This document shows, piece after piece, positions 3,001 to 61,040 of a stretch of 64,000 nt of DNA; positions within the stretch are counted from its first letter, which is position 1; every line of letters starts with the position of its first letter. Below the pieces are notes generated by a model, which saw only the letters and a program-made list of their open reading frames with translations, made no database searches and had not been told where the DNA came from. Both the position numbers and the translations under genes were made by a program. This DNA is from Apostichopus japonicus. Its lineage: Eukaryota. The DNA is taken from NCBI RefSeq assembly GCF_037975245.1, contig NC_092565.1:23274063-23338062 (forward strand), given 5' to 3'.

Positions 3001-6000
3001 TGCATTACGTATCTATTTTCGCCTTAAAGTTTACTATGAAATATAGAAAACATTACTCATCCTTCTAAAGTTTCCCAGGTCCCCTAAATTATTGACCCCC
3101 TCTGTAGCCTTCTCTGACCCCACGTGGCCCTTCATCAGCCCTCACTATACCTGACTGAATTCAAATAAAGCCGGGTCTCGATGTAATTGGTCGTTATCAA
3201 GAGTCAACATGGTCTACAACAAGCTTCCATTGGACTAACAGATTTGTTAGGCTATGAACCAGTTTTGTGTACGTTTCTCGTCTTCATTTTTAGCCTCGCT
3301 TTTAACTGATCCTCTGCTACGCAGCTCCATAAAATTGTGACGTTTGTTTGGACAATACTCGACTAAATATAGTATGCATATTCATTATATGAAGGCATTT
3401 CGCGATGTTGATTTGGAATTCCTATATATACCTTGTTGGCGTAGAAACATGAGAGTTGCACATTTTGCGGCTCCTTCACATGGAGAAATGCATGAAATGT
3501 GAAACTCGTAACGGCAGGGTCAACCATGACTACACCCAGGCGTATGGTGCGATATGTATTAATAACCCAGAAATACTCCAGGCATTTATCGGGTCAATGT
3601 GAATAGAGAAATCAAATGTCTTGGAATATAATGTTTCCCAGTTATGATGCATGCTATATAGACACAAACTGGCCATGTCGAACTAAACTTTCAAGCTTTA
3701 TTATCTTAGTTATACACAAATGATGTAATCAGCACCCCATTTTAATTATAAAAAATAGTACATAAATAATAATAATAACACATTCACAACATCTTATGTA
3801 CTGCATTCAGTGGTTTCATATTTAATTTGCCCCGGAATGCCCAAATCTTTCACCTTTTTTTTTAATTTTAATTATTTTCTTGTCTATTGAATGAGATATC
3901 GTTTCAACTCCACAACCAATTTTTGTTTACCACATACACCGTACGCACAATTTTACCGCCTATCACGTTTCCTACACTACTAAGTTTTCATGGTAACTAT
4001 TATTTTTTTTTAAAGCAGGTTAGATCAATTTCTAGCCAAGAGCTACAGGGTACTACAGATGGGACTCTTGAAGGGATATGGTAGGTACTTCATCCAACAC
4101 AGCGGGTCCGTAAGGAGGGGTAGAATTAAGTTTCATTTCCAATTGAGTGAAAGCTTGCCTTAAGAGGTGACCCATTGAGGGTACCTCAAAAGCTACTAAA
4201 GCTTCACACCACTTGAGTCAAAAAAGGCCGGTCAATCAAGGTTCATATACAAAGTTGCCTCTTCTTCTCTCTGTCTGCTGATAGATTCCAAAGTGGAGAG
4301 TTTACTATCTCCCTTCAATGTTTGTTATCCTCTTTGAAATGACATGAAAACTGTCAATACGAACAAAGCATCTCAAGAGCTATTGTGGTGGATTACTGTA
4401 AAGGTAAGCCCCCAGGTAAACAGGTCTGCTCAGGTATCTTTTGGGGGGTTGTTTCTTTGTTTACTTTGAAGAACCCAACAGGACGAGTCGGGTGTGAATT
4501 CAGTATTCAAAACTAGATTGCCGTCAATTATTTACCTATTGTCATCGTTAGGGACTAATGAAGTTGTTAGTTGCTACTGACACTTTTGGTCAAACTTGGC
4601 TGGATGACGAGCCTACCTGTTCAAAAACGGATCGAGGGAGGATTTGGGTCTTTTAAAAAAAAACACTTGGACCAACAGGGGGTCTTCTTGTACTTAGTAT
4701 ATATACCCCCATTGGTTGATCACATATCCTCGGTCTTTTCTTCCAAACTTTTAATTGGGACATCCAGGAGAGATGAGGGGTGCGAAATTAGTAAGATTTC
4801 ATGATTTTACAATCTCTCAAGTGGGGCAGAACTACGGAAACAACAAAAACGTGACGTAATCTTACAAGGCACTTGAATTTTTGTGAGAAACCCTATCGTT
4901 TTTAGCTGTTGATCACACACGGAGTTTCTCGTAATCTAAATGAGGAAGAAGTCATCACGTTATTGACACAAATATCACTGACAGGTTTGGTTGCTAACGT
5001 GTAGTGGAACAAGTGAACACAAATGGACGTATAAATGAGGCTGTTTTTGAGAGGGGGAGGGTAGGGGGCTGTGGTGTTGAAGAACTTTAGAAGTCCCTGC
5101 TCTCAGTCAATGTTTTTTTTTCTATAACCATTATTTTAAATTGTTTATTGTTTATATTTTACAAATAACTCTCGGAATGACAGTGGCTGATTCACCTAGT
5201 TTTAGCACGCGCATAAACCATTGGGTCATCTCACTATAGAAACAATCCAACTTAATTAAACAAAGGATGTTTTAATGGCTTTAAGAATCATGGTTGCAAT
5301 GATTTACAAAACTTGTCAAAGAAAAAAAACAGGTGTTGAATGTCAGCCAAAGATGAGATTCCAATTTGTTACACATTTACAAGAAAATCTAGTTTCTTCA
5401 GTTGCTAGAATTAATAAAACAATGGATTACATTATAACCATGTATTCTATACAGAGAAGCCGAAGTTATAATCAATTTCATCTGAATTCAACGAGCTTTC
5501 CAAGCAGTTAGCGGCATGAATTAAAAATAAATATCTTGTTACCCTGGGTATTTGTTCTACATAATTATGTCATGCAATCCATTATTTCCTAATAATTGTC
5601 CGATAATGACATAACAACACTGAAAATTTGATTCATAAAGTCATTCTTTAAGGGGATAATCAATATTTCCTAGCTATACATGTACATAAAAGTGGTCACT
5701 ACAAATGCTAAAGTTCTGCTACACTCGGATGGTATATACTGACAACTTGCACAAGGACATCCAATTGTCTTATTTTATACTCCTGATATATCTAGGGTAT
5801 TATATTGATAAAATCCAATTTTAGTATGCTAAATGTGGGAACAATGGGTGGACATAATGTACGCTAATGAAGGATTGTAATGTTATTATTATAGTGTTGA
5901 TATGTGCACACGATAAAACTTTAAAATAAACTGAAATACCTATGTTCAGGTCACATGCATTCCCTTTTGGGGTTACCAAGATGGTCATTAGTGGCGTGTA

Positions 6001-6732: not shown

Positions 6733-7996
6733 CAGGGACGTAGCTAAGGCCTGATGATTGGGGGGGTGTAGTGTCTGAAATTCCAACTGGATGGGTTTTG
6801 GAGCAAGAAAATTCCGACTGCTGCCTTGTACCCATCCCCCCACCACCCCCCCCCCCGTACTACTCGTCAACATTAACATGTCGAACGCGCGCGTAGCGCG
6901 CGGAAAATTTTTTCGATACATTTGTACACAGGCCCTCACTTCACAAACTTATTAATCACTCTGGCTAAGCAAGTTAGCAACTGAGTAAAGTTATCTGCTT
7001 CTAGGCTACATAGACTACTAACTACAAAAGCTTAATGTAACAAAGGGGAAATTGTTTTGCAACAAATTATATTCGACGACATAGTGAATTACCAAAAAAT
7101 ACAGTGCTTTTTACTAGCACGCTTAATATTGTTTTCTTGGGGGGGAGGGGGGCTATTTATCACTCACATGAAAAACTTTCAATTGTGCGCTTCATTCCAA
7201 CTGAGCATTCAGAATGAAGTGAACAATTAAACATTTTGCAGAAAAATGTTGAGTTGACGAGATATGATAAGTTGTCAATTAAACATTTTGCAGAAAAATG
7301 TCCAATTGACGAGATAGGCTATGATAAGTAATTGTCAATTAAACATTTTCAGAAATTTTTCAATTGCTCAGTTAAAGCAACTGAGCAATCCAACATTTTT
7401 CTGATTTTGATAAGATTTTATCTTGTTATCTAAACAATTTACTGAAAAATGTCAACTTATGGGGCAAAGTTTTTCTTATTGATGGCATTTTTAAGCTTCC
7501 GTAGATTAACATTGCGCGTTTTAATCGTATACCATACAATGTATATCCTGAACTTATTTGAAGCTAGCGCACAGGGTCAACCCAGCAAATAGCAAAATTT
7601 AATACATGAATTAACCGAATTGAAGCTGGCGAACTTTGTACAGTAGTTCTATTAGAATTTTTTTTTTTTTTTAGAGTATTCAAAATCATACGAAGTTTTG
7701 TATGGTGGAGTATAAGGATCGCGAGATACAATTTCTCAATGTGACAAGGAAAACGTGGTAAATATCACTGATCAAAGGTCAATTTTGACCAAAAATTTTA
7801 GGTCAATCAAAAATTACAAGAATATGTGAAAATGAGAGTGCGACAGTCGGAAAATTAGAATGCGACAGTTGGAAAATTTAGAGTGCGACAGTCGGAAATT
7901 CCGACTGTGGCACTGAAATTTTCCAACTATCGTCAGTTTTACCAAGATTGGGGGGGTGAGACACCCCCCCACACCCCCCCTCTAGCGACGTCCCTG
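6733..7996. mobile_element. non-autonomous hAT-like DNA transposon (about 1.26 kb) with imperfect TIRs
   Basis: Left end CAGGGACGTAGCTAAGG. Right end reverse-complement CAGGGACGTCGCTAGAG (14/16 identity). Terminus CAGGG fits the hAT YARNG consensus. Perfect 8-bp direct repeat GTTGCTTG immediately outside both ends (6725-6732 and 7997-8004). Subterminal repeats ccgactg/gcgacagtcgg. No transposase-sized ORF. Confidence 0.55.
7216..7400. repeat. three tandem units of about 60 bp, each with a hairpin-forming inverted repeat aacatttt-gcaga-aaaatgtt
   Basis: caattaaacattttgcagaaaaatgt...gacgagata repeated at about 7222, 7277 and 7335. Lies inside the hAT-like element. Confidence 0.5.
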
Positions 7997-23000: not shown

Positions 23001-26000
23001 AACTGGAGGGTCCACTCACCTACAAGCCATTATCAGATGCAGTAAGTCTGTTGCTTTGGGGAATATCTTTCTTGAAGCTTTGTTAGGTAACCCAACTTCA
23101 TATTTTATCAAAAGTCATGCAAATATTTCTCAATGGTGGAATTACTCGTTATTAATCTTTTCTTAAAGTTCTTCTTTTTTTTCAATCTATTTTCATGGTG
23201 TTTAGTATAGTTGCTGCAAAGGAAAGGGGCATATTCAGTTTATAGGTGGTACAATTGAAATATAGATTAGTGGTTAATAGATTAGTGGAGATTAGTGGAG
23301 AAATAGATTAGTGGTTTAATCGGGATTTCAGTTGGAGGAGATTGATCTCTTTTCTATAATATTTTAAAAAATAACAACAAAAGTCTTATTGTTCTGTCTA
23401 TTTTTCAGGAGATTACAGGAGTTGTAGATGCTCAGGTGATTGGTATAAACCAAGCTATAAGAATGAGGGCCAAACAAGATCTCACTACCAAGTCAGGAGT
23501 GTAAGTCAATGAGAACAATAAGAAAGAAATGATGAATGTCATTTAATATTAATTACTTTTACTCTGACTAATCATCTCTTTGTCTTGCCCTTCTTACAGA
23601 AAGAAATCAGCCGGAGAAGAATGGCTTGAAAAGAAAGTTGGATCTTACTTGCCAGGGGTCTATGAAGAGGTAAGAATTATGTGGACTAGAGGACCAACAA
23701 TGAAGAATTTTAAATGGTTTATAAAGCAACCTGATTGTGTCTTTAGCTAAATTGCCCAAGAAATTATGGTTACTTTTTAAAGCAATTATCAAACACTTCA
23801 TGGAGACCTCTGTAGCAGGTACATGTATTTGTAAAGGCTACTTTCCAGCTACAAAGTCAGTACACAAAGTCAGTAATAAGTTTAGGCAAGAATAAATATT
23901 GGATATTGAAAGTGCAATATTTACCTGCATGAGAAAGGAATGAGTGGTTCGTCTGAAGTTGTAGGAAGGTTGTAAAATGACATCTGATTTACGGGGAGCT
24001 TGAGCCCAACTGGAGAGTCAAATATTCCTTTTACAGTAACTTCTCTAACTCTGTAACCATATAGAGGTTAATATTTGATTCCATTTTCATTGTTAAGCTT
24101 TGGTCATCACCATTGGATTCAGCCGTTGACAACTTTAATTAAGTTCTTGCTAGGATGGAAACGTCAGGCTCTCTAAAGTTGATAGATTTACCTTCACAGG
24201 CTTTTTTGCTGTTGATAACCAGTTTATTAACAGTTTTTGCTCTCATTACCTTCATTTGTTGTTTATAACAATTAATGTCCTATATATATAAACTCTTGTG
24301 ACAGGTAGTAGATCTAGTTCCTGCATACACCCTCAAGCCTGAAGAAGGATTGCACATCAAGGCCACTCACAACTGCGTCGATGCTCTCAAGAAGAAGAGA
24401 AGTGCAGGAGAAATGTGGTTGGTGACTGGAGAACAGATCAACAGTTACATCCCAGAAATTGGAGAAGTGAGTAATGTTTTGTTTTGAAGGCATAACTTAA
24501 AGGCATTGAAGACTCGCCCCAAACAGCGTGCCGTGCTCTGAAAAAGTTAACTTTCCATTGCTTGCAAGTGAAGTGTTCTGCTTGTCGCTACAAAATGCAG
24601 ACAGTAATGAAACGTGATACCTTGTTATCTTAAGCTGGACCTGAGATCCATAGCTGAGTCCATTGCTGTATTGTTTGTACACTGTGCTGTGGGTATTGAC
24701 CGCAGCTGTATGTACTGAATGTACACTAGTGTCTAATTACCGACGGTAGCAAGTTGTGTGCGTATATTCTGAGATTGATGGTGGTGTCTAACACTTCTGT
24801 TACACCTCAGTCGAAACTAGGTCATATTACCGGCATTAGACGTTTCTTTTTGCGCGAGTCTTCATACCCTTTAAGCTGAGCGATCCAACTGTCATTTATG
24901 TGACTTTTTCCATTGCTGAGATCATGTGAAATACTGCACCTGTTTTCATTCCAAAGAATATCATCACACAGTTCTATTTGAATATTCATGAACGTAGTAC
25001 ACTAAAAACAATTTAGAACTGCTCTCTTCCCGATGTTGAAGGGAGCCAAGTATTATAATTTGTCCCCAAGGTCGACCTGGCATATGACAACCCCCCGCCT
25101 CCCACACCAGATTGTGTGTCCAGCTATCTTTGGAGGTGAGGCTGATTCACTTTAGAAGTAATTTGACATAACATTTTATGGTTATATCTTTAGAAATGGC
25201 ATTTAGGTCATTGGGATATAGGAGACATACTTACAACAAATTACTAAGAAACCATTCAAAATTTGTTTATTTTACTCTCATTTCTAGGAGGTCATGAAAG
25301 CTGTTCAAAAGACTGTCCTTCGCAAAGGTCAGTTCTGTGTCGTGTCCAACCCTGTAGACAGAGATGGCGTTTGCCAACTCGGAAAGGAGAAATTATGGAA
25401 AGGGGTTGTCTCTTTCTTCCTACATCCAGGTAAAGTTATTTATTCCAGAGCTATCCAAAATGACTGACGTGTTTATCATACAGTATTTCATTCATTTCAA
25501 CTTTTCTATCCTAGGGTATGAAATCTTATCCTTAACATGACCTTTGAAGGATTTTCTTTTTCACTCACAATAGCCCTACAAAACATAAAAAAAACTGATT
25601 TTTAATACCTTTTCTTTATCAATTCTATTTTTCTAGATATTCTTTTATGAAAATAATACTTATCAGAAAATCAAATCAATAAACTTTAGAATTGGATTTT
25701 TTTTTTGATACTTATATAATCCCAAAATTTCAGGAGAGACAATCAAGCATGGAATTCAAGAACAATTTATCCTCGGCCCTGATCAGTCCATCGTTCTTCG
25801 GGCCAACTGTGAATTCACCGATAAGTCTGCCGGAGGTAAGCATACAAATGTTTATGATAAATGTAAGTACTAATTGTATAGGCTGCAAACAAGTGTTTCT
25901 TTTAGTGTTAGGATATGACAAAACCACAAGTACTTGTAAACCTAGTGTATTAGGCCATCAGCTGAAGCTCAAAATGTGGCTGTAAAATCAGTTTCGTTCC

Positions 26001-29000
26001 AGCAACAACGGGTCTAGACTTTTAATGCATTTTTGGGTAGTTTAATGCATCACAAACATTATATCAAAAGTTCTCCAAAAAATTTCCTGCAGTATTTTTG
26101 TAAGAAACCCTTGAAATTGGGTATGTTATGTAGACATTACGTGCTACGATGCTATGTATTAGGAACACATGTGCTAACGTTAGATTTGGTACAGTGGTGC
26201 ATACATACCACTCTTTTCTTATATGTTAAATTACGACTGATATATTTTTTTTGTAAAATAGTTGGGTCAGGGTTACAAGAATGGTGGAAGAGGATTCTGG
26301 TCTAAGGGTCAGTGAGGATTGTTTTCAGGCATTACAAGTTGTGCCCCCCCCCCCTCCATTTTCGCCAAAATGGTAAAAAATCACATTTTCAACTTTGAAA
26401 TATGAAATACAATTTTTGCACATTATAGCTTAAGGGTTTTAATTATGAAAATGTACCACTTTTAATAAACTCAGATATAATGCTTTGTAATAAATCAAAT
26501 ATTTTTAGATTTTCCCCCTATGTTATGAATGCATTTCGTCTGTGCATGTATGCGTAAATATACACATATAATGAAAAGTTCCTCTCCATAATTGTTACAC
26601 TCCCCATCCAAACTGTTTTACAAATGCGACCCCCTCCCCCTCTACTTTACATGTAGCTAAATCCCTAGTTACAATGAGATGTACCAATGCCCCAAGACCA
26701 GTGAGCTATTTCTTTTGTATAAATCAATATATAAGTTGGCACACTAAGACGTCATGGCATATCGTAGATGTGAAATAAAGTTATAGTCGGTATATATCCG
26801 TTACCTTAGTACTCTTTCTACAGTCTTCTGCAAAACTAGGTACTTTCTCCTTGTTACTGAAATGACATGTTTATAATTCGTATTCGTGCAAAAAGAGTTT
26901 CCAAGGGAGTTAACGTATAAAAGAAAAGATCGACAAGGTTTCGAATGGTATCTTGAATAATAATAGTTCTATATTCTACAAATAATATGAATAATAAAGG
27001 TGAATGGTACAAATAAGTGAATAACAAAGACAGTTAACTTAAGCCCCAGATAGAAAGAAATAATGTATCTATTAAGACTGGGTCGATACACTCAATGGTG
27101 TAGTAGAGCTGGGCCTTTGCGATGATTCAAGATACAGGTTCTTCATCAAAAGGCGCGGCGCGGAATTAATAAGTGATTAAAAGTTCATCCAAGGACAGTT
27201 GTACTAGTCTTAACAGTATCCACTTCAATTCACTGCATGGAAGTCAGATATGGTATGGAAAAGGGAAAGTCTATTCCGTAGTAGAGGTGAAGATAATTAG
27301 ACGAAATAAAAGTCACTAAAGACTTGAATATCCTTCAGTCAAAACTTGAACAGATGCACAGAACATATTAACAATATGAATAAAACAGGTAATGAAATGT
27401 TACGGCAAACAATAAAGAACCGTGATATTGGAACAGGGTCAGGGGCGATGGTTCCCCAACAACAGTATATAAACCTTTGACTGGTTTCAGGACGCAGTAT
27501 TTGCGTCATCGTCATCAGTAAATGTAGTTGTGAATATGCAAGAGGTAAAGCATGCCCATAACACCCTCCTCCCCCCTCCCCTCTCAAAAAAAAGTGTGAT
27601 TTGAAGAAAATGTGGATATTTATCAAAGGTGTCTGGTAGGTAGGGTAATCTACGTAAAGCTACTAATAGCTAAAATGAATATATGAATAAGATCATGTTT
27701 TCTGGTTCCTTTAAACTCTGGGGAACAAAATAATGACAACATGACTTTGAAAAAGTTAACCCTCTTCACAAACTTCAAACTTGATTAAAATTTCAGACTA
27801 AGATATCAAGATTTAACACCATCACAGTTCATCCTCCAAATCATCTTCCCCTGCATCAACAATCTCAACATCTTCTTGGAAGTTGCTGCAATTTATATAT
27901 TTACATAGGTCTGTACACGGTAGTTGTGCATTCATTCAGGAACATCTTCCTTTAAGACATTTGCCGACTCTACAGCTACTGCTGACACACTGAAGCAAAA
28001 CATCTGGGTCAGGTGGCTTCGTCATCCAAGTGATTATAAGGTCATCATTTTCAAGTTTCCATCCATGTCCCTCTGGTGAGAGTGCATCAATCCTTTGCTG
28101 CAATGCCCTACTGTGAATAGCAGCCTGGTTGGTGCAGCGCTTTACATGCTGGATCAGAGCATCTTTTGTTGGTGGTAAACTCTGCTCTGAGGAGGAGATG
28201 AACAGAACACCTTGTACCATGAAATTCGATATTTTTGAGTCTCACATTTTATGATGGGGTACCAATATAATTACAATTCAGCTAGAAATATGTTGCAAAT
28301 TACTTTAATAATTTCAATGGAAAGATTAACCTGATATTGCATCTCAAAGCGTTTAGAGAATTTTTTAATTTTCCTTGGGGGAGGACCCCCATATTCCAAA
28401 AGTCCTAGATCCACCCCTGAACACTCAATGAACCACACATTGGAGAGAGAGTACTTTACCTTTCAAGATCTGTATGTCTTCCTTGTCAAGAATTGTATCT
28501 AGTTTCTTCAACATAGAGAGTGGTACCTCACTTCAATGGCAACACGGTCTTTTCCTCTAATATTCATAAAATCTGGGCTCATCTTTTTTCCGCTCTGCTG
28601 CTTGTCGCAGCAATACCTTAATAAAATGAAATAAAAAAGCAAATTGTTTTGCATTTTCTGTTGATCAAAATGTAAGTTTGAACAAATAAGAACTAAGACA
28701 ATTTTATTTATATACCATGTGATCTGCTCATCTTCTATGGACAAACAAAGACACATTCAAATTTTGCAAACCAGTGTCATGCAAAAAAGAATTAAAACTG
28801 GCTTTTTTTTGACAGTACAGTACATTATCTCTTAATGTTATGGTTTAAATTATACAATGGTAGATTATATCTGTTACTAATAATAAAGGAGACAGATACT
28901 TGTTCATTTTGGTAAAGCTAGACAGGCTGACCATAAGACCTTGCAAACCTAACCTTATTGCACCTTTGTTACACTTATTTTTCTAACTAATATAATATCC

Positions 29001-32000
29001 CTATCATTCAAATAAAGGGCCACAGTAAGAAAACTATGAAGCCTGTATTTAACACTTAGGCTAGTGCCCAGATGGAGAATTTGACACAAATTTCCGTTCC
29101 TACCACCATATAACAAAACAAATCAGATGACCATGCCACTAATTATATTATGTTCAGGTCCAACACTGTGCCCTTTGACTTGGATTATATCCCTTAAGAG
29201 CTACTGATCTTGCATTATGCAACTTCTCTTAACACTTCAACTATGCCACAGAAGTACAAGTAGAGTCGTGTAGTATGCTTAGGCTTACCTCCATCGAAAG
29301 TCTCTGCCTGCTGCAGCTTGTCCCGTTTGCAACGCCTAGTAATGTATTGTTTCTTTTCCCACATATAATAAATTGAACAGGCAATACACCAGAGCTTCTG
29401 CTTGGTTTCCTCGATCTTTTCCGTCAATTCTTCCTTTAAAATCATATGGGGTCTCGTCTGGAACTGTCCGTTTTCTTGCAGCAATGTGCTTGCTATCAAT
29501 GAACCGCCTGTAACACTTATCGTGGAACCCCATCATACTATGCTGTTGAACACACGCTTCATCGTAGTAGGCCATGGAGTAATCAGTAGTACGGCGATAT
29601 CACTGTCTCCCCCGCTGAGATTAAGCCAATCTTTAGCGCAGGAAGTAACTTTAGTCCATCGTTTATTCGTCAGTGCCTTGAATGCTTCAAATTTTACAGA
29701 TTCAATGTGCACTGAGCACTGTAGATTTCCGTGTGTCGGAGACTGACTAGCGCCCGTGGGAGCCGCCATGTTTGTTGTTTTCTACAAAGATTGCACACAG
29801 AACTCATGGCTCATTGGACAATTCATATCACATGGTACAGATATCTCACTGGCGCACAACTTTTGAACGTAAAACGGCAAGTTTCTTAACATACGCAATA
29901 AAAAATATAGTTCGATCTTTCAAGCGGAATTGCAAAAAAACTGCAGGAAAGTACATGGAGAACTTTTGGATCATTAATCTTAATTAATTTATATATTCAA
30001 TGCTGTAGAGAAATTTTAGACCCGCAGTTGCTGGAACGAAACAAGCGAATTTCGACCTTCACCTGATGGCCTATATCTTTTATTGATCGCGTCAGGAAGT
30101 TCAACAACTCAAAAGGAATACAATTTGAGACATCTGTTTCTTTCCCCCTCTGTTGTTTTATATTCTCTGTAATGTCATGTGGAGAAAATACTTATGTGTG
30201 TGAATGTTCTTCACACAAACACTTTAAAAAACATCCTACATGCCTCCAAAACACATCTTCTTGATGTACCCTTCAAATCCATTCGTGAATTGCATAGAAT
30301 TAAATTTCATTTATTGTTTCAATTTTTCTCCTCCTTAGAGAAACCTAAAGAGCGTAAATGCGGTGATCGTTGGATGATTCGGGGACCGCGCTGCTACATA
30401 CCTCCTATAGAGTTGGATGTCGTCGAACAAGGAGATGGACAACTTGTCCGGTAAGTCAAATAATTAACTACCTTCGAATGACTCCCTTATAATTTATCAA
30501 CGAACAGAAACATACAATTTCTGAAAGACAAATCTGAACTTTTCTTCTTCCCTATATCAAGTGAACATGGAATGTTATCTTCATTCATATTGTATTATCT
30601 CTGATATTAGTTCCACTAGCCAACCATTGATTGGTTAAAGTTTGCACTTGAATTAATGCTTAATGGTTCAATTCATAGAGAGAAGGACCTTGTTCTCTGG
30701 AGTACTACTTGTTCATATCCTCTTCAAGCCCAAAAGTTCTAACCTCTATCGAAACAAACTTTATATTTCCCAACATCGTTTATCCTTTACTCAAATAATA
30801 AAGCAAAGAGACAATTTTTTTAAAGCTTATCTTCTCTCAGTTAAAAAATGAACTAAGTGAAATAGACATACATCATTATGATCCCTTTGGTCGTATAGTA
30901 TGGAACTAATTATTAAATACTAATTAACATTGATCAGTGATTATTTTTGGAAGATGATAACAACAAAGCAAATCTAACTTCAGTGTTTGTTGATGATGTG
31001 ACAAGGTCTTGATTTTACTTTTTTGTCTTTTATAGAAAAGCCATACCTCTTGGCGAAAATGAGGGAATCTATGTGAGAAATCTGCAATCTGGAGAGGTAA
31101 TTTCTTGTCTATGTAATTTGTGACCAAACTTTTTTTCTTCTTCCTTTTATTAATTTTTATCATCCCATAAAAATCATTTTCAGACCATTTGTGTTACTCT
31201 ATAAACTTCTTGAGATCATGGTCTTCTGTGTCACGATTCCTATGGTATTTGTATGTATGATTGTAGTCAATTATGAGAGGGCTCTTTATGTTTATTTTTC
31301 ATTTGTTGCTGATTTATTGAAACTAGTCACGTAGCATTATTAGATTTACAAATCCAGATTCCACTTTTTACCATATTCACTCAAGTAACAAGAGCAACTT
31401 TTGGCTCAACTGCTATAGAATTTGTTGTTTCTTGCAAAAAGCTGTTTTTATTTGAGCTCTTTAATAACTCTTGATATATATATATGAACCACAACTATTG
31501 ATTTTATTATGAAAAGTAGGCTAGGCCTTGTTTCATTTGCTTTAATGTTTTCTTTAGCCATGGTTATTATTTTTTAAATGAAACAGATTTTCGTGAGGTA
31601 TTTCAGGGAACAAGTTAGTTTCCAATTTTTGTGTAACAGTTTTGAGTGCTCCTAATTTATGTGTCTTCTAAAATACTATGTGTCCCTGTGTAAGAAACTG
31701 CTATGCATCTTGGGACTTGTAAAGCAGTTTGATCATTTGCATATTTTTTTTGCCATGTGATGCTGGATAACTTGTTCCCTCTATTGAAGTTGTGCAAGAA
31801 ACTAAAAATGACCTATTTGCATGTTGACCAATGACTGGTTGCAATCAAAACCAGTTGTGTAAAGATTGAATACATCTGGTAGTAGTGTTTTGTAGACGTG
31901 TAGTGTGTCTGCACTCTTAGTCTAGCCCAGTTGCCTTAGTAGTGTTTTGCAGACGTGTCATGTGTCTGCACTTTTAGTCTAGCTCAGTTGCCTCAGTACT

Positions 32001-38000: not shown

Positions 38001-41000
38001 TATCCCAAAATTTGAATGATGATTTCAATGTGAATAAAAGACAGAAGAGAAGAAAGTGGGTTGTTTTGCTTAGTAATTCTAAGGTGATTTTTGTTTCTCT
38101 TTGTCTGTGAGGTAGGATTTCTCACCCCCCCCCCACCCAGATCCTTCTACATCAAAGAGAAAAGCATATTGTGGACATTTCCCCCCCCCCCCCCTCCACT
38201 ATTCTTAGAAGCTGCAAATCCACTGCTACTATGTAATCAAATCTCTTGATTTCTTTTTCTTTTGTCAGTTCTGTAGAGAGGACAGCTGGCCACGAGGCAG
38301 CTCGCAAGGAACAAGAGGCCAAAGGACATCTGGAGAGACAACGACTGGTGAATCAGAAGGAAGCAGAGAAAGCCAGGAGTATTTTATACGAACTCAGAGC
38401 CCAGACATCGGCTGTGGAATCAACAGGGCAGGCCAAAGCAGAGGCACAGGTGAGGCACCAGCTAGTACACTCTTTCAGGAAATAGTAAACATGTTAAAGT
38501 GATTACTTCAAAGTGATTACTTTCTGGTAGCAGGAGCAAATTGTACCAAAAATTTGGTCACAAAAAGTCAGCATGACTGATAGGTAGAAATTACTTGGGG
38601 AAAACTGTTATATTGGTAGATAAAACAACACATACTGCCCACCCCACCCCTCCCCCCCTTGCCCCACTTCATTCTCTCCTTGAGTTTGTAGATGCTTATC
38701 TGGTGAAGCGAGTGTCAACCAACTTTTACTCGGTTAGACTAAGATGTTGAGATGAAGTTTTCACCCTCCAGTGTGGTATATTATTACATTGATATATCCA
38801 TACAACATCCTGTGGCTATATTTGCATGGGTCCTTAGAACCCCAGACTCCTCCACCCAAAGAAAGAAAACACTTGTGTTTCAACTGTCTCCTCAGGCTCT
38901 GCATATCCTTCTCAGACTACCACTAAATAAGTATAAGAAAAATGGTGAGCTGCCCTCTCCCCCTGTCGCTACCAAAGAAGAAGGAGATTTAGACACCCAT
39001 AAACTTCAAGGTGGCTATGCATTGATATGTATATATATCACTAATGAGTGAGTTATTGTTTATGTTCAGGCTCAAGCTGAGAAGCTCTTGATAGAGGGCC
39101 AGAGCAGTATTGATGAAGCAACCCTGAAACAGGAGGCTGAGAACATCATTCACTCTACCGACCTGGAGATACAGACAATGCTGAGAGAGGCAGAACTGTC
39201 TTACCAGCAGCAACAGGACACGCTGGAGTTAGATACGAAGAAGAGGATGGCAGAAATAGAGGTGAAATGGACGTTAATGGGTCCTGAATGGGTGGTGAGG
39301 TGGGAGGAAAGGGTGTATAGGGACCAAGGTTTGTGTACTAAAGAAGGCTTGGAGGAGGGAGGAAAGGGTGAAAGCAGGAACAAGGTTTCTGTACTAAAGA
39401 ATGCTTGGAAGTGGGAGGAAAGGGTGTATAGGGACCAAGGTTTGTGTACTAAAGAAGGCTTGGAGGAGGGAGGAAAGGGTGTAAGCAGGACCAAGGTTTG
39501 TATACTAAAGAAGGCTTGGAAGTGGGAGGGATGGGTGTAAGGAGGACCAATGCCTGTGTACTAAAGAGTGCCTGGAGGAGGGAGGAAAGGGTGTTAGTAG
39601 GACTAAGGCTTGTGTACTAAAGATTGCTTGGAGGAGGGAGGAAAGGGTGTAAGCAGGACCAAGGCTTGTGTACTAAAGATTGTCTGGAGGAGGGTGGGAA
39701 GGGTGTAAGTAGGACTAAGGCTTGTGTACTAAAGATTGCTTGGAGGAGGGAGGGAAGGGTGTAAGTAGGGCCAAGGCTTGTGTACTAAAGACTTAAGACT
39801 AAAGTACTGGCTGGTACATCTGTATCAAGTTGGGCATTGTTTGCTTTGTAAGTGATTTCTTGAAATAAAGTCTCTTTGTCAAGGTAGACATGTTTTTTTC
39901 ATCTTGCAGGTTGAGAAATTTGCATCCATGGTGGACAGTATTGGAATTGAGACCATCACAAAGATAGCCATTGCTGGACCTGCATCCAAGGTAAAGATTA
40001 CCTTAGAATGACCAGAGGTTTATTCACCATACATTCCTGGTTTTAAGTAATTGTATACCTGGAAGTGTTTTATGTTTGCTTTAGTTTCTCTTCTGATAGC
40101 TTGGTTAAAATGTACCTGATATCATATTTAGAAACTCAGTTTTCCCACACAGTTTCCAAAGTACATTTTGTGTTAAGTGTACTAAAATTGCAGTCTACTC
40201 GTTAAGGGAAATCGATAATATGTGAATAATTACAATCTAGGACACTGAAAATGGGAGGGCTGTCGATGCCCTATGATGGTCAAGTCTGCCTATAGAAAAA
40301 CAGTCTTCCTCAAATTCAATTGAGCATTAATAACTTGTTACTTGATAGCACAAACTACCCAAAGTACTGCCATTAGGATTCATCCTTGAGCGCACCTAAT
40401 TAATTGACCAGTCACCTGTATGATTGTAAACACAAGTGCTCTTTTGGTCAGCACTACTTTCCTGTATGAAGACAAATTTGGCTTGACCACTGAAATAGTA
40501 CACTTTGTGTTTAAACATGAATTTGTGTAAAGGAGCGTTCAGTATGGCTAGCATTATGAACTCGGGTCGATATTAAATCTCCCTTTTTTGGCCCAAAACA
40601 GGGGACTCGGTTGGTATTTGCTATAGGCAGGGTAGACCATAATGCCTTCTCTCAGCCCCTTAATCCTTTTCCATCTCCTGTTCTGTTTTTTCCATTCTTC
40701 TTGGTTTAATTGAGAGAAGCAGTCAAGTATGGAAAAAGTGTTTACTTGATGCTTACAGGCCAGACTATCTAAAAGAGGATAAAGTCTTAATTCAAAGTAA
40801 AAAGAAAACGAGAGAATTACCTTTCTATTGTTATTACCTGTTAGTTTCTTTGGCCAGTCAGTGAACTACCATTGGTATATTCTGTGAGCTGCACTCACTG
40901 ACTTTTGTGAGGGAAGCAAAAATGGTAACCATTTTGTACAAATGGACAATCTTATATTGAAACAACCTTACTGATTATGGTTTGTTGTTTAAGTCAATAA

Positions 41001-44100: not shown

Positions 44101-44888
44101 ATACTTAATCCAATGACATTTTCATCAAGCCTAAAAGGTTATACCATTAGTTAAAATGAAGATGAGTAAAAATTTCATAGGTAACTTGATGAAAATAAAA
44201 AAATCAGTCCAATCATAAATATTTACAAACTAGCACTCTGAGATGATCATATTTATATGATGAAAATCAATGTCTGCAAACTAGGTTAGACAAAAATAAA
44301 AAATAAATCTTCTTTTACAAGTCTTGGGGTTTTGACTTTATTTAGCAGTCATGACTTTGATTGTCAATTTGTGGCAATATTATCAAACCTACCAGTTATT
44401 ACATGGAAAAAGATTGTGAAGATTTTGGTATAAAATAAAGCTTATTTAACATTTTTAACAATTTAAGCATTTCTTTGACCAGAGAAGTTACTACTGTACA
44501 AGTATTAAAGGATGATGTTATTAGTCAAGGTTGTCTTTCTATAGCAATTTTAATTGTTGAGCTATGACCCTTTAAAGAGATTAGGTTCATCAATAAAAGT
44601 GACTGGACAATATAGTCTAGTACATAGACTGTTAGATTAGTTCCTCAGATGCAATACAAAACCCAATGGAAAACATAAGAATTTGATGGTCTCAAATAAC
44701 ATGTTTATATGATGTGTTACACATTTTTCAAGGACAAATTATGTTGATAGTAATCCAAGGGTGTTCTTTTGTTGATATGAAGTTAAAAGATGTTTTGGTT
44801 GAGTTATTAGAATTGATAAAACAATGGATTCATATGGACATTGAAGGCCTGCACCGTAGAGCTCACATCATCATCAATCTAGCCTTAA

Positions 44889-45233
44889 AGGGTGTTTAGA
44901 CTCGCGCACAAAGAAACGTCTCATGCCGGTAATCTGACCTAGTTTCGCACGAGGTGTAACAGAAGTGTTAGACACCACCATCGATCCCAGAAAATACACA
45001 CACAGCTTGCTACCGTCGGTAATTAGACACTTGTGTACAGTCAACACATACAGCTACGGTCAATACCCACAACAGTGTACATAGCAGCGATGGACATCTC
45101 AGGTCTAGATAAAAGATAACAAGGTATCACGTTTCATTACTGTCTGCATTTTGTAGCGACAAGAAGAAAACTTCACTTGCAAGCAACGGAAAGTTAACTT
45201 TTTCAGAGGGCGGCACACCGTTTGGGGCGAGTC
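44889..45233 (-). mobile_element. TTAA-flanked MITE copy 2 (345 bp), intergenic, inverted relative to copy 1
   Basis: Termini AGGGTGTTTAGACTCGCGC / GGCGAGTCTTCAATGCCT. TTAA at 44885-44888 and 45234-45237. Internal sequence aligns as reverse complement to 24501-24870 over its full length. Confidence 0.65.
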
Positions 45234-48231
45234 TTCAATGCCTTTAAAGGATCATTCCCAGGGATTTAGTATATTTCAAAGATGAATATCTTGATAACTG
45301 TTATAGTTATATAGAAACATCCATAGTGCTCAAATTTTTCTGTTTCCTTATACTAAAAAAGCATTTCTGCCTATTAGCCATCCTTTACCTGTATGAAGAT
45401 GGCAACTCTGATAGAATGACAATTCTCAAATGGCTCTGTCTGCATTATTTAAATTAAGTGAAATTCAAATAAGATCAAGGAAATGAAAGGCATAAATTAA
45501 TGGGAATATTTGTATCCATAACTATTGATGATTTACCAAACTCTCAAAAAAGTAAAAAGTCAACTTTGCTGACATTGTTTAGTGATAATTAAGTATTGTT
45601 TACATTTCTATTGTTTTAAGAAAACCAGATTATTAAATTAATGTTTACACTTTAAATTGTGTTTTTATCATTGTGATTTAATTTTGTTTCTTTTGCTCTA
45701 GGGTAAAAATTTTGTCATTTTTTTCTTTACAAATTTTTGTCATTGTTATTATATTTATTTACAAGGATATAATCTCTTCCATGACAGATAACAGGTGTGG
45801 GGATTGTGGGGGGGGGATTGAAACAAAGCACTTTTTTGTTTCTGTTTCTGAACATATGCACTGTGCTTTACATAATTCTTAGCAATAAGTGTAAAAATCC
45901 TTGAGTTTAATGAGAGGACTGAGCATGTACAAACGTACATCTCTTGATATATCCACTGCCTGTCAGTCTACGGGCAATGATGAAATTGTTAATGTTTGTG
46001 CTATTGAAACCAAGGAAAAACTAGCAAAATTTGAACAGTTTTAGCTTCAGATATGACCAGTATTAAAATGGTTGTATCACCCATGAACGAATCGTTTTCA
46101 CATTTGATCTGGCCGTCCAATTGTAAAAAATACCTTTAAATGTAGTTAAACTCTTTGACCCTGTTTATAACGATGTGTCGTCCACGAATTTGCCTTTACA
46201 TTATCACCACTCCTCGGGCTGTTTCAAATTAAAAGTTCCTCTTGTTTGTGTGTTTGTCTGTCTGTCTGTAATGTTAGTTACAATATCAAATACAATATTA
46301 GATTATGTTGAATATCTTGGAGCCTATCACAGCTTTTTAGGACCAGAGCAAAATTAACTCAATATGTATACATTTTAAATATGGGATCTGCCCAAGCTTA
46401 CCTTCTTGTTAACCAGGTTTTCACAATTTGACCCCTGGTGACCCCAAATGATATTTGACCTCCACAAAACAAGAAGCTTCTTGTTCTCAATGTGGTACTT
46501 CTACACACCACATATGAAATTGTTCGAACCTTCCCTTCTTCAGATATTGTGTTTACAAGCCAGGCGTCACAAAGCCAAACACACATATGCCATCATGAAT
46601 GCAAAGGTTACGAATTACCATCGAAACCAAAAATGTCTTCTTAAATAACACCTTTCAACGAGCCATTAAATTGGGCTTTCAGAAAACAGTTTGACTGTAT
46701 GGCTTATAAAAATATCAAAATGTAATTTAAAGCAATTTTGTATTTAAGCAGCAATGCAATATCTTTGATACTGAAATGAAATACACCTGGTACACTTAAA
46801 GGTACACTCTCTCACACAATACATCTATTCCAAACCAGTGCAACTTGTTCAATATTCATCTGCACCAGTACACTAATAACGCATGACAAAGCTTCGCTTA
46901 AATGTCAATCATACAGCTTTGTGAGTCTTTCAGTTAACATCATTTACAATACATGGATGCTGGTTTTCTAAAATACCCCTACCCCCCCCCCCCCCAAAGG
47001 TATAAACTAATGATGTTGATTATCTCATGTAAGTATCGGTTACCCATGTCAGCACTGACCAATGAAATACTCAGATATTTGACGTATCAATTATGCTACA
47101 GACTGTGTTAATGTGATGGTGACACCTGTAACCCGGTAAAATGCTTGACAGATGCCTTACTCACTAAAGTAAACACTTTCCTGGGTCTAGACAACGTTAG
47201 CTATACCTGGTATATATCATATGATTACAAAATAATCTATCTTGTCAAATGAACAAACAACCAGCTGAACAAGTTAGCCAATTCAAAGTGATCTGGAGTC
47301 TCGGGATATTGAGCATATGTTATCACACTACAGCTAAAAAACAAACTAACGTTACGTTTTGTGCTGATGTGTCTGCATTTGTGATCACACTACAGCTAAA
47401 AAACAAACTAACGTTATGTTTTCTGCTGTGTTTGTCATGGACGATATTATATTGCAAATTCACACCAGCTGCTTATAAACACTAAAATTGAAAGAATTCT
47501 TGGTTGGTAAGAACAGCCAATGAGAGTAGAGTACCATCAACGTCCTACAATATTATATAGAAAATATTCATAATATTAGTAATTATAAAAAGTGTTCACA
47601 AAACCTCACACACTGTTTCAGACAGCTCTGTAAGAAGATATTAGATTTGGATTTTTAATGACACAAGCAAAGAGAAAAATTTAAGAATACCATTCTATAA
47701 GTTGAGCATAACCATCATAAATTATTATCATATTTTGTCCATTTCTTGGTCCACAATGACAGGTCCAATGAGAATTAATAAATGAATGAAAGAGTAACAT
47801 TTGATGTTAACTTGAAAACTATTATATCTTACTTTAATAGACATACTAATCAAGAAAAACAATCTGTACTGCATGGAGCTAATCATATACTTATTAACGA
47901 GGTAACAACCACCTTTTCATTTACATATATTCAAAACCTTCAGACTTTTCTTTTAGGAATTAATATTGTGGTACCCTTTCTTCATATTCCCACCCATCTG
48001 AAAAAATTTGAAATTATAAAGATAGAAAAGGTATTATACATATGACAAAAGTACTCTAATATTTTCTCATTATCTGCGATCCCAAAACCTCATACGTGAA
48101 ATTAGCATCTTGAATAATGAAACAGAAGCCAACAAATGGACAATATCGCCTTCACCAATGTAACATGATACCTCTTATTCACACTACCATGTTTAGTTTA
48201 AAAAATAATGTTAATAAGATGGATCAATGTA

Positions 48232-48595
48232 GAGTAGAGGTTATCTCAAAGCAGAGGTTATCTCAAAGTAGAGGTTATCTCAAAGAAGAGGTTATCTCAG
48301 AGCAGAGGTTATCTCAAAGTAGAGGTTATCTCAGAGTAGAGGTTATCTCAAAGTAGAGGTTATCTCAGAGTAGAGGTTATCTCAAAGTAGAGGTTATCTC
48401 AAAGTAGATGTTATCTCAAAGTAGAGGTTTTCTCAGAGTAGAGGTTATCTCAAAGTAGAGGTTATCTCAAAGTAGGGGTTATCTCAAAGTAGAGGTTATC
48501 TCAAAGTAGAGGTTATCTCAAAGTAGGTGTTACCTCAAAGAAGAGGTTATCTCAAAGTAGAGGTTATCTCAAAGTAGAGGTTATCTCAAAGAAGC
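48232..48595. repeat. 17-bp tandem repeat (agaggttatctcaaagt)n, about 21 copies
   Basis: read directly, with minor variants (gcagaggtt, aagaggtt, gtagatgtt). Confidence 0.85.
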
Positions 48596-50282: not shown

Positions 50283-53200
50283 CTAAACCGCCACAAAAAA
50301 AGAGAGAGATGAAAATAAGACAACAACAGAAGAAAACAAATAAGCCAATGGTCTACAATAGCATTAAGTTTATGATAGAAACAACACTGTAATGATTTTG
50401 AATACTGTCGATTTCAAGTGATCAACAAGGCCTTTTAGACTGACTTTATATGTAGACATATTTTAACATGAAAAGCGATAGGGTTCACTAAGTGGGACAT
50501 ACCTTCCAAGAAGTAACATTACACACAGCTGTGCTTTTTGAGTTATCAAGTGTTGCTTTATCACTATACATAGGTGAAACTACACAGTAGGTATGCAAGT
50601 CACCCAAGCTTTACTTTTGTAGATGACATATTACAAGTTTTAAACATCAATCTCTTTTGACTTTGAAACAGGATAGATCTTTTTTGCACCCTCCAAAGTT
50701 TACAAATTATACAAAGTGTTTCATACCTGCTGATATCAAGTGACCTATGACCTTCACCAGAAAGGGAGACCTTTATAATCAGCATAACTATCATTGATTT
50801 GTGGTTGGCTTACTACAAGCCACGCTGTGCAGTTTCCTACGATATATTTCAAGGAGGGTTGGAGAGTATGTACAAGGAGGAATGGACAGGGAAATGAAGT
50901 GGCCATGATACAATTACTCAGCTACCGATTATGTGGACTTCCCGCAACATTATCTCATTGAAGAAGCCATCGATATCTATAATAACCAAAAAATTATAAA
51001 AAGATGATGAAGAATTATTAAAGATAATATCCAGACTAACCTCATGCTCTAGGAAGAGAGCTTTTAATGCGCCTCCCGACCAATAATCCATTGCGTAGGC
51101 CAAGAGCTTCATTGCTATTGGGTTAACTCTCAGGAAATTGCCCACAAATACTACACGAGTTAATTTCTGCAAGAAGAAAGAGAAAAGATTGGGAGTGAAA
51201 CTCTGTACTACAGCAATCAAGATGTGATGTTCTTCTTGTACTTGAGGACACTGACCTGAATAAAAGTGAATTTTTATTGTTTTTATGGCTATACGCAAGA
51301 ATTGTCCATAGAAGATATCAGTGTTCTGTTATAGATTAGACATTTTGCTGCAATGTCACCTTAGACACTACGTCACTTTTGTACACACAATTCTTGAGGC
51401 ATTTGTTACCTCCAGGGCAGTAAACCAGTAGCATTGTTGCGATATGAGATTTTTCCATATCGATATACCGTTAATTCTGTTCTGCTATATATATTGTCAA
51501 GAGTCATTCCAATTTCAACTCAGCAAACTCCAGTCACAAAGAGCAGTACTCTTTGCATGATTGATATAATTTAGTCCAATTATCAGTACCAGTAAGACAC
51601 ATTTTTCACCCCAGTTGATTTTTTCTGACAATCCATTTTCAACTAATCAACTTATAAAAAAATGGAAGCAACAACATTTCAGTTCAAGAACATATACCAT
51701 ATTTCTTTGATTTTAGTTTTTTCAAATGTCTTTTCTTTTGCATTCGTGATCAATTTTTATAAGATGTTGCACTAAAATTTAGGATCAGGTGATCTGGTGG
51801 CGGTTTCAATATAAAAAAGTAGAATTTTTATACTTTTTATTTTAAATACGTACACTCAATAAAATGGTTAAAACAAAAATATGGTTATGATTTTACAAGG
51901 GTTGCACCACTTCCATCAATCTGACAATGTCTTCTGAGCATTCATCTACTTTAAATCGTTCTTGTTTTGAACCATCAATCGTTAACTCTCTGAGTTGAAG
52001 CACTCACCAAATTCATGGCAGTCATCATAGCCAGAGAGCCGATATTGTTTGTGATCGTAACAAGAGTTGCTCGGGCTAGATCAGCTTTTGAAGCTTCCTC
52101 TCTCTTCTCTTTTCGATGCATAAATCCAAAGCTGTGGGAGAGTAGAAATATCACTCCACATGTTAACTCAATTAACCAAAAAGTACATTAACAGTAGAAG
52201 TTAACAGTACATTAACAGTTAACAGTAGAAGTTAACAGTAGAAGTTAACAGTAGAAGTTAACAGTAGAAGTTAACAGTACATTAACAGTAGAAGTTAACA
52301 GTAGAAGTTAACAGTTAACAGTACATTAACAGTAGAAGTTAACAGTAGAAGTTAACAGTTAACAGTACATTAACAGTAGAAGTTAACAGTAGATTAACAG
52401 TTAACAGTACATTAACAGTAGGAGTTAACAGTAGGTTAACAGTTAACAGTACATTAACAGTAGAAGTTAACAGTAGAAGTTAACAGTTAACAGTACATTA
52501 ACAGTAGAAGTTAACAGTAGATTAACAGTTAAGAGTACATTAACAGTAGAAGTTAACAGTAGATTAACAGTTAGGTACATTAACAGTAGAAGTTAACAGT
52601 AGATTAACAGTTAACAGTACATTAACAGTAGAAGTTAACAGCAGAAGTTAACAGTTAACAGTAGAAGTTAACAGTAGATTAACAGTTAAGAGTACATTAA
52701 CAGTAGAAGTTAACAGTACTGTAGATTAACAGTTAAGAGTACATTAACAGTAGAAGTTAACAGTAGATTAACAGTTAAGAGTACATTAACAGTAGAAGTT
52801 AACAGTAGATTAACAGTTAAGAGTACATTAACAGTAGAAGCTAACAGTAGATTAACAGTTAACAGTACATTAACAGTAGAAGTTAACAGTAGATTAACAG
52901 TTAACAGTACATTAACAGTAGAAGTTAACAGTAGATTAACAGTTAAGAGTACATTAACAGTAGAATTTAACAGTAGATTAACAGTTAACAGTACATTAAC
53001 AGTAGAAGTTAACAGTACATTAACAGTTAACAGTACATTAACAGTAGAAGTTAACAGTAGATTAACAGTTAACAGTAGAAGTTAACAGTAGATTAACAGT
53101 TAACAGTTCATTAACAGTAGAAGTTAACAGTACATTAACAGTAGAAGTTAACAGTAGATTAACAGTTAAGAGTACATTAACAGTAGAAGTTAACAGAAGA

Positions 53201-60114: not shown

Positions 60115-61040
60115 ATTGTTTAATTGTTACACTATGAGCTGTTTAATTGTTACACTATGAGCTGTTTAATTGTTACACTATGAGCTGTTTAATTGTTACA
60201 CTATGAGCTGTTTAATTGTTACACTATGAGCTGTTTAATTGTTACACTATGAGCTGTTTAATTGTTACACTATGAGCTGTTTAATTGTTACACTATGAGC
60301 TGTTTAATTGTTACACTATGAGCTGTTTAATTGTTACACTATGAGCTGTTTAATTGTTACACTATGAGCTGTTTAATTGTTACACTATGAGCTGTTTAAT
60401 TGTTACACTATGAGCTGTTTAATTGTTACACTATGAGCTGTTTAATTGTTACACTATGAGCTGTTTAATTGTTACACTATGAGCTGTTTAATTGTTACAC
60501 TATGAGCTGTTTAATTGTTACACTATGAGCTGTTTAATTGTTACACTATGAGCTGTTTAATTGTTACACTATGAGCTGTTTAATTGTTACACTATGAGCT
60601 GTTTAATTGTTACACTATGAGCTGTTTAATTGTTACACTATGAGCTGTTTAATTGTTACACTATGAGCTGTTTAATTGTTACACTATGAGCTGTTTAATT
60701 GTTACACTATGAGCTGTTTAATTGTTACACTATGAGCTGTTTAATTGTTACACTATGAGCTGTTTAATTGTTACACTATGAGCTGTTTAATTGTTACACT
60801 ATGAGCTGTTTAATTGTTACACTATGAGCTGTTTAATTGTTACACTATGAGCTGTTTAATTGTTACACTATGAGCTGTTTAATTGTTACACTATGAGCTG
60901 TTTAATTGTTACACTATGAGCTGTTTAATTGTTACACTATGAGCTGTTTAATTGTTACACTATGAGCTGTTTAATTGTTACACTATGAGCTGTTTAATTG
61001 TTACACTATGAGCTGTTTAATTGTTACACTATGAGCTGTT
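60115..61040. repeat. 23-bp satellite (ctgtttaattgttacactatgag)n, about 40 near-identical copies
   Basis: read directly; almost no inter-copy divergence. Confidence 0.95.

Follow-up and report, generated by a model that had tools for sequence, protein, structure and literature searches.

The DNA analyzed here is a stretch of 64,000 nucleotides of Apostichopus japonicus (RefSeq assembly GCF_037975245.1, contig NC_092565.1, positions 23,274,063 to 23,338,062 of the forward strand; the whole stretch is called the window below), in which the MVP gene lies on the plus strand and one MVP intron contains, in antisense orientation, a 4,123-bp element that is very probably derived from a transposon of the AcademX lineage. 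Colinear MVP exons were located by tblastn from about 20.9 to 41.2 kb with a human MVP probe, which served only for exon location. The host intron of the element runs from 25836 (donor gt) to 30338 (end of the acceptor ag), as read directly at the splice sites, and its length of 4,503 bp agrees with the coordinates and the 4.5 kb given in a preliminary description of this DNA. The remaining gaps between mapped exon matches are mostly 0.2-1.5 kb. The peptide obtained by joining the two flanking exons contains a Pfam Vault repeat that spans the exon junction (E=3.4e-17).

The MVP intron and the element within it

The features of the intron and its borders are as follows.

25734..25835, plus strand: MVP exon 5' of the host intron (splice site read directly; spliced peptide matches Pfam Vault, E=3.4e-17)
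25948..25950: target-site duplication TAT, left copy, plus strand (direct reading; identical to 30074-30076; each of six copies has its own 3-bp flank pair)
25951..30073, minus strand (strand of the residual open reading frame): whole non-autonomous element, very probably AcademX-derived, 4,123 bp (end-to-end colinear BLAST to loci L001-L005, 97-98%; 98.5% to the six-copy consensus)
25951..26103: terminal inverted repeat, element 3' end (inverted match to 29930-30073, about 71% over about 150 bp; consensus terminus perfect over 17 bp)
26104..27821, minus strand: about 1.7 kb of non-coding DNA, no recognisable feature, 3' of the residual open reading frame (as conserved among copies as the rest of the element)
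29930..30073: terminal inverted repeat, element 5' end (its terminal 17 bp, 30057-30073, have one substitution in the window copy)
30074..30076: target-site duplication TAT, right copy (direct reading)
30339..30450, plus strand: MVP exon 3' of the host intron (splice site read directly; Pfam Vault match; tblastn with the human MVP probe)

The boundaries of the element were defined by comparison with other copies. Five A. japonicus loci (L001-L005, GenBank GCA_002754855.1) were chosen via proteins matched by the C-terminal peptide encoded in the window, and each of them gave one colinear blastn match to window 25950-30074 with 97.0-98.3% identity, the copy in L003 carrying an internal deletion. 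When the six copies were aligned together with their flanks, similarity began and ended at identical bases everywhere and the flanks were unrelated. Each of the six copies is enclosed by its own perfect 3-bp direct repeat (ATA, ACA, TAT, GTG, TAA and AGA in element orientation); the probability of matching 3-bp flanks in all six by chance is about (1/64)^6. Pairwise identity among the copies is 98.2-99.9% over aligned bases, corresponding to a difference of 0.15-1.8%, and about 6-8 copies are known at present.

In the six-copy alignment the ends read TAGGCCATCAG...CTGATGGCCTA, with the short form TAGGCC...GGCCTA in every copy. The ends of the 4,124-bp consensus are 5'-TAGGCCATCAGCTGAAG...CTTCAGCTGATGGCCTA-3', forming an inverted repeat that is perfect over 17 bp and imperfect (about 71%) out to about 145-155 bp; conserved blocks within the inverted repeat of the consensus include GTTTCGTTCCAGCAAC and CAAAAGTTCTCCA. 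The terminal 17 bp at the element 3' end of the window copy (25951-25967) are TAGGCCATCAGCTGAAG, and the right terminus at 30057-30073 reads CTTCACCTGATGGCCTA where the consensus has CTTCAGCTGATGGCCTA. In the non-coding part at 26104-27821, tblastn with 170 family proteins gave no match, and no tandem repeat, no Rfam family and no Pfam match of its open reading frames were detected.

When the element and the duplication (4,123 + 3 bp) are subtracted, a 377-bp MVP intron remains, in line with the neighbouring introns. The insertion alone therefore explains the odd length of this single oversized MVP intron. The preliminary description had placed a dead transposon or nested-gene fragment, antisense to MVP, at 27936-29769, held it responsible for the long intron, and suggested looking for inverted repeats and target duplications near 27700 and 29800. 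The terminal inverted repeats, the 3-bp duplication, the five other copies, the residual ORF antisense to MVP and the 377-bp residual intron bear out a transposon. The extent has to be revised, since the real unit is 25951-30073, with its ends at 25951 and 30073, and the coding remnant makes up about 45% of it.

Residual coding sequence of the element

A stop-interrupted, frame-shifted chain of minus-strand open reading frames (ORFs) with Cys/His motifs covers 27,822-29,769. The individual ORFs (29533-29769, 29336-29575, 29215-29499, 28508-28756 and 27936-28220) switch frame repeatedly, and the chain and its motifs are found where they had been described before. When the 170 family proteins were compared with the whole window by tblastn, matches occurred in two regions only, 27825-28277 and 29290-29772. 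The pieces that could be recognized, all on the minus strand, are listed below; P numbers denote collected proteins.

29584..29769, minus strand: N-terminal module 1, first half, from ATG (MAAPTG...LQCSVHIE...DIAVLL; tblastn to P0059 residues 5-61 and P0025 residues 5-51)
29468..29530, minus strand: N-terminal module 1, second half, the H-x2-C part (tblastn to P0013 residues 61-86 and P0025 residues 88-107; alignment with relatives)
29287..29388, minus strand: N-terminal module 2, first half (CIACS..., the C-x2-C part; tblastn to P0059 residues 154-184; alignment with relatives)
28611..29286, minus strand: AT-rich spacer bounded by gt...ag, 676 bp (GC content 29-34%; no protein homology; relatives contiguous here)
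28458..28610, minus strand: N-terminal module 2, second half, with a frameshift and then a stop/frameshift (tblastn to P0059 residues 186-218, P0013 and P0012; alignment with 25 relatives)
27825..28216, minus strand: C-terminal remnant with (Y)KVFCS, the LPPTKDAL...GHGW domain and a degenerate CXC cluster at 27882-27989 (tblastn with P0008 and P0059)

The first half of module 1 matched P0059 residues 5-61 with E=1e-6 against the element and E=5.9e-4 against the window. The two N-terminal modules follow the patterns C-x2-H...W...W...(Y/F)H-x2-CY-x2-F (module 1, 29769-29584 plus 29530-29468) and C-x2-C...AET..G followed by L..AAE.K.DE...-x2-C (module 2, 29388-29287 plus 28610-28511). The C-terminal end starts with (R)YK(I/V)FC at 28216, continues with LPPT.DAL..H..R...QAAIH...P.P.GHGW...W and closes with the Cys cluster; by tblastn it is 53% identical to P0008 over 123 amino acids (aa) and 40% identical to P0059 over 119 aa. 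In an alignment that combined 23 proteins of 1,480 aa or more with the short forms P0012 and P0025 (25 relatives in all), the pieces proved colinear with the opening approximately 220-280 and the final approximately 135 residues of proteins of about 1,600 aa. By tblastn, residues from about 280 to 1465 of such a protein have no counterpart in the window, and neither a DDE transposase core nor an XPG-type nuclease was found there with the 170 family proteins.

The Cys cluster is degenerate. A C-x4-C-x4-C-x4-C motif is present at 27942-27989, and an in-frame TGA at 27936-27938 stands at the position of a conserved Cys of the relatives, after which the frame stays open as far as the stop at 27822-27824. 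Of nine conserved Cys residues, three are gone (one changed to S, one to the TGA stop and one to Y). With the stop repaired to Cys, the C-terminal piece scored 17.5 bits (E=0.0054) against the Pfam TCR family, whose cut-off is 23.5 bits; apart from this sub-threshold match, the conceptual peptides of the window gave only noise against Pfam (BrxC, RING-like). The preliminary description had proposed THAP, BED, TTF or FLYWCH fingers. None of these was matched in Pfam by the three conceptual peptides (E<=1) or by the full-length relatives (E<=0.01-0.1), and the motifs belong instead to AcademX N-terminal Cys/His modules and to a C-terminal CXC (Tesmin/TSO1-like) cluster.

The AT-rich spacer at 28611-29286 probably represents an old intron that the transposase gene had in its ancestral form, which is the simplest reading, or else an insertion; the frames on its two sides join uncleanly. 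P0059 is unbroken across this point (AETLDGG|SLREVAERKKDE). It had been stated before that the frames shift without any GT-AG junction. The shifts are real, but a candidate GT...AG pair does exist at 29286...28611, and its donor is used by GenBank gene models. The six-copy consensus contains the same broken frames and the same stop. Since the coding defects are common to all copies examined, the family multiplied after the gene had decayed.

The C-terminal peptide matches six A. japonicus 'hypothetical proteins' with 82-100% identity (E about 1e-49). Models P0001-P0005 all end at the same GRCS stop, and P0006 departs from the frame about 12 residues earlier. BSL78_07488, BSL78_11113, BSL78_24716, BSL78_19796 and BSL78_26369 (P0001-P0004 and P0007) are gene models placed on copies of this transposon, and P0007 is a chimera in which the transposon remnant is fused to neighbouring chromo-domain sequence.

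Such models raise the possibility of a functional nested gene, or of a domesticated short Cys-rich DNA-binding protein, for example a regulator of transposition without a catalytic core. Models of 138-200 aa have been built on the near-identical copies, splicing from a GT at about 29286 to an AG that precedes EQSLPP, and short forms that join N- and C-terminal parts in an intact frame exist in other animals (P0012 of Paramuricea, 334 aa, and P0025, 383 aa). However, the unit repeats at dispersed sites and bears inverted ends and target duplications, several frame breaks relative to intact relatives are common to the copies, and the CXC cluster lacks three of nine conserved Cys, one of them replaced by a stop codon. 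The GenBank models, moreover, make unlike splice choices on near-identical copies and read through out-of-frame stretches, and P0007 is chimeric. A nested gene is therefore highly improbable, and the nested-gene half of the preliminary description is not supported by the repeat structure and the broken frames. The word 'dead' fits the coding capacity of the element, but not its ends, which are nearly intact.

A chance cluster of ORFs in intronic sequence, named in the preliminary description as the outcome that would overturn it, has next to no probability. The ORFs are indeed short (40-95 aa) and give no above-threshold Pfam match. Nevertheless, they match A. japonicus models at E=1e-49, the pieces are colinear with the termini of full-length relatives, there are five further genomic copies, and one of the A. 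japonicus models (P0003) matched a 925-aa relative with E=8e-22 in a library of 1.8 billion proteins. Chance ORFs were ruled out on the protein matches, the colinearity and the repeated genomic copies.

Relatives and assignment to AcademX

To collect relatives, P0003 was used as the HMMER query; it is the GenBank model of another copy, with a C-terminal domain 100% identical to that of the window. In the 1.8-billion-protein library, 869 cluster representatives were obtained at E<=0.001, which likewise speaks against chance ORFs. Nearly all of these matches lie over the C-terminal approximately 85 residues, and several of the representatives are 900-1,624 aa long. The nearest full-length relative of the C-terminal domain is P0008 (59% identity). 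Against Pfam, the long relatives gave the Tesmin/TSO1-like CXC domain and weak DUF6589 matches, and no others. The Pfam TCR cut-off was passed by three of them (P0115 and P0192 with 30 bits, P0013 with 26.5 bits; E down to 6.4e-7). Against the PDB, the family profile matched the CXC domain of LIN54 (5fd3, E=1.3e-5) and otherwise gave weak EXO1 and FEN1 matches only.

The motifs DHEEADTR...SPDTDV...GLH.FTGCDS.SAF.GKGK are conserved in the long relatives, and it was these motifs, together with the 3-bp duplication, that first suggested AcademX. In this lineage one large protein carries a transposase plus a nuclease of the XPG type and a presumed Cys8 finger, and the elements have 3-bp target-site duplications (TSDs) in animals, a 5' pyrimidine, a 3' purine and terminal inverted repeats (TIRs) of less than 10 to more than 500 bp (Kojima 2020, PMC7165386).

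Four published AcademX transposase domains (Kojima 2020, PMC7165386, Data S3) were de-gapped and compared by blastp with the collected relatives. Academ-2_SP of sea urchin matched P0013 with 45% identity over 422 columns that included all 413 query residues (E=1e-117) and P0059 with E=7e-109; Academ-4_BF matched P0013 (E=4e-97), Academ-1_GA matched P0059 (E=7e-68), and the more distant Academ-3_SP matched its best relative with E=2e-37. An AcademH fragment, used as outgroup, gave no blastp match to the same relatives. Because the published AcademX transposase domains match them, these proteins, of which the window keeps both ends, are AcademX proteins.

The nuclease part was examined in P0008, for which an AlphaFold model was made from a 45-sequence alignment (predicted local distance difference test, pLDDT, 84.8; predicted template modelling score, pTM, 0.77). 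In Foldseek, the first 39 matches of the model were almost all XRN2, EXO1, XRN1, FEN1, Rad2, XPG and GEN1, with a probability of 0.8-1.0 in 37 of the 39, a target template modelling score of about 0.45 (FEN1/EXO1/XPG-sized chains) and E-values from 1.5e-3. The third component is present as well, in that 27882-27989 aligns with the nine-Cys cluster of the relatives in degenerate form. We infer that this cluster is the published 'Cys8 finger' of AcademX. As to the termini, a 3-bp TSD is found in six of six copies, and the ends are 5' T and 3' A, as expected for AcademX.

Two further properties of the relatives were observed. DUF6589 (PF20231) scores just under its cut-off over the transposase core of P0192 (residues 629-861, E=1.3e-5), P0013, P0221, P0266 and P0270, and it is also listed among precomputed domains; the Academ transposase core may have been catalogued here by a different name. 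The one paper that mentions DUF6589 was uninformative. AcademX N-termini carry two Cys/His modules of about 75 aa each, C-x2-H...H-x2-CY and C-x2-C...YH-x2-CY. No Pfam family covers these modules, either in the window peptides or in the full-length relatives, and they are not among the three domains listed for AcademX (Kojima 2020, PMC7165386).

It could also be supposed that an element of another superfamily with 3-bp TSDs (PIF/Harbinger, CACTA/CMC-Chapaev or Zator) has captured fragments of an AcademX gene. A 3-bp TSD is not exclusive to AcademX, GGCC-type ends occur in some PIF/Harbinger elements and the ends here start with TAGGCC. With the DDE domain missing, moreover, the transposase proper to the element cannot be read from it. 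Against this, the remnants are the N- and C-termini of one protein, in order, in the same orientation and adjoining the element ends, and internal deletion is for this reason preferred over capture. The TWA duplication (TAA/TTA) of PIF/Harbinger fits only one of the six TSDs, and the ends begin with TAGGCC, not with CACTA or CAC... as in CACTA/CMC (EnSpm, Chapaev). Academ is compatible with the terminal 5' T and 3' A and with the length of the TIRs. Published hemichordate and sea urchin Academ ends also begin with TAG..., which is weak evidence, these belonging to the AcademH lineage. Capture by another superfamily thus seems very unlikely.

Several points weigh against the assignment to AcademX. 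The diagnostic DDE domain is absent from the element, so that the assignment is made from coding remnants, TSD length and terminus type; the nuclease matches in Foldseek have marginal E-values (above 1e-3); neither an autonomous partner with the same ends nor a close full-length A. japonicus protein was found; none of the best 120 listed relatives of P0008 is labelled A. japonicus; and two AcademX loci of Holothuria leucospilota share no end sequence with the element. Taken together, the above results nevertheless make it very probable that 25951-30073 is a young, multi-copy, non-autonomous and internally deleted transposon of AcademX (Academ superfamily), lying antisense in the MVP intron. 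Since it lacks the catalytic domains, it is filed as a non-autonomous deletion derivative and not as an autonomous member.

Among the same 120 listed relatives, full-length copies are found in Holothuria leucospilota, sea urchins, a crinoid, fishes, cnidarians, a hemichordate and tunicates. One H. leucospilota locus (L007, CM055980.1) has candidate ends of its own at about 2281 and 13250, which read TGCCCCAGTCACACTA and come with a TAA duplication; being a single locus, this is no more than suggestive. Its model P0212 (HOLleu_38227) seems to lack the first exon, as the N-terminal H-x2-CY module lies at 3718-3801, ahead of the annotated start (6001).

Proposed history and comparison with known systems

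Internal deletion is the usual product of interrupted gap repair. The family probably arose by internal deletion of an autonomous AcademX element; of a transposase gene of about 1,600 codons, it keeps the first approximately 220-280 and the last approximately 135. In cis, the element retains what a cut-and-paste transposon needs, it is multi-copy and young, and it cannot encode a transposase. The decayed family would then have been moved in trans by the transposase of an autonomous AcademX element able to recognise these ends; the likely binding sites are the conserved subterminal blocks. Insertion into an MVP intron of about 377 bp duplicated the 3-bp TAT target, and the MVP copy, lying antisense within the intron, would be removed by splicing. 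Most likely this copy rides along neutrally in the intron and leaves the transcript together with it. As its ends are nearly intact, it might still be moved in trans. All of this is ordinary genome biology.

A source of active transposase is possible, because the copies differ by only 0.15-1.8% and yet no annotated autonomous partner was found. We would give a rather low probability to the speculation that an active AcademX transposase has gone unannotated in A. japonicus, or that a related family there mobilises this one across family borders. If true, this would be a rare instance of recent AcademX mobility, and an active Academ transposase might be obtained from it for study. A literature search for Academ in A. 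japonicus returned only noise from 'academy' and 'academic'. It is a more remote idea that the short forms made of N-terminal modules and a C-terminal CXC part (the element family, P0012 and P0025) act as DNA-binding regulators of transposition.

Besides the intron, the MVP gene offers two observations. In a collection of 5.8 billion proteins, the MVP peptide spliced across the host intron had one match, at 60% identity, and no match to an A. japonicus MVP. Either the public gene sets of A. japonicus lack MVP at this exon or annotate it wrongly, or the source of the window is an assembly without annotation or a close relative. Inside MVP, at 39297-39791, between exon matches at about 38455 and 40781, a 56-bp unit is repeated 8.9 times with 86% matches and creates, at 39088-39540, an internally duplicated ORF of 150 aa.

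Other interspersed repeats occur at window 6733-6828, 7878-7980, 44602-44891 and 46404-46613, with 69-89% identity to unrelated parts of the A. japonicus loci (L004 19284-19387, 18133-18235 and 802-1086; L001 5675-5837). At 60117-61040 a 23-bp unit, TGTTTAATTGTTACACTATGAGC, forms a perfect tandem array (40.2 copies, 100% matches, free of indels), which is unusually homogeneous for a minisatellite. Further tandem arrays lie at 52232-53431 (42 bp x 28), which yields a repetitive 142-aa ORF at 53062-53490, at 53549-54193 (187 bp x 3.4) and at 48233-48591 (17 bp x 21). Downstream of MVP and on the opposite strand, a minus-strand ORF at 55830-56225 matches Pfam Fumble (type II pantothenate kinase, E=2.6e-19) and represents the first exon of a pantothenate kinase gene.

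The identification has some consequences for annotation. Several GenBank 'hypothetical proteins' of A. japonicus, including part of BSL78_26369, are transposon remnants, and widespread animal proteins that are named 'uncharacterized', or after a CXC/CRC domain in a few UniRef names, gain the name AcademX. Academ is one of the least studied superfamilies of DNA transposons, and a young, well-bounded non-autonomous family is a useful handle toward an active partner. To a transposon specialist, nothing in it will be surprising.

The Academ superfamily of eukaryotic DNA transposons was reportedly described by Kapitonov and Jurka in 2010. Like Academ-2_SP, Academ-1_GA and Academ-4_BF of AcademX, the element has a 3-bp TSD, a 5' pyrimidine, a 3' purine and long TIRs, and its remnants show homology to the two ends of large single proteins, whose core matches published AcademX transposase domains (E=1e-63 to 1e-117) and which continue into an XPG/FEN1-like nuclease and then a C-terminal Cys cluster. 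Unlike the autonomous AcademX elements, it is without the transposase and nuclease parts, and none of the AcademX material examined contains its end sequence. Closer in kind are Academ-N1_NV to Academ-N5_NV of Nematostella (formerly DNA-3-3_NV to DNA-3-7_NV), which are non-autonomous AcademX elements with 3-bp TSDs (Kojima 2020, PMC7165386, Table S3). Compared by description only, they and the present element are alike in being non-autonomous with 3-bp TSDs; they were placed by the similarity of their ends to autonomous elements, whereas the element here was placed by coding remnants.

The C-terminal Cys cluster of the family resembles the Tesmin/TSO1-like CXC domain (LIN54, PDB 5fd3, PF03638). 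In contrast to the paired units of LIN54 and Tesmin, the family has a single CXC unit, which ends a transposase and is degenerate in the window. By a looser analogy, the element may be compared with Ds derived from Ac or with deleted P elements, in which the ends and terminal gene parts are kept, the middle is deleted and amplification depends on activity supplied in trans. It differs from them in belonging to another superfamily, and nothing here points to a repressor function of a truncated product. AcademX and its non-autonomous derivatives are already catalogued in other animals, and the kind of element found in the MVP intron is a known one.

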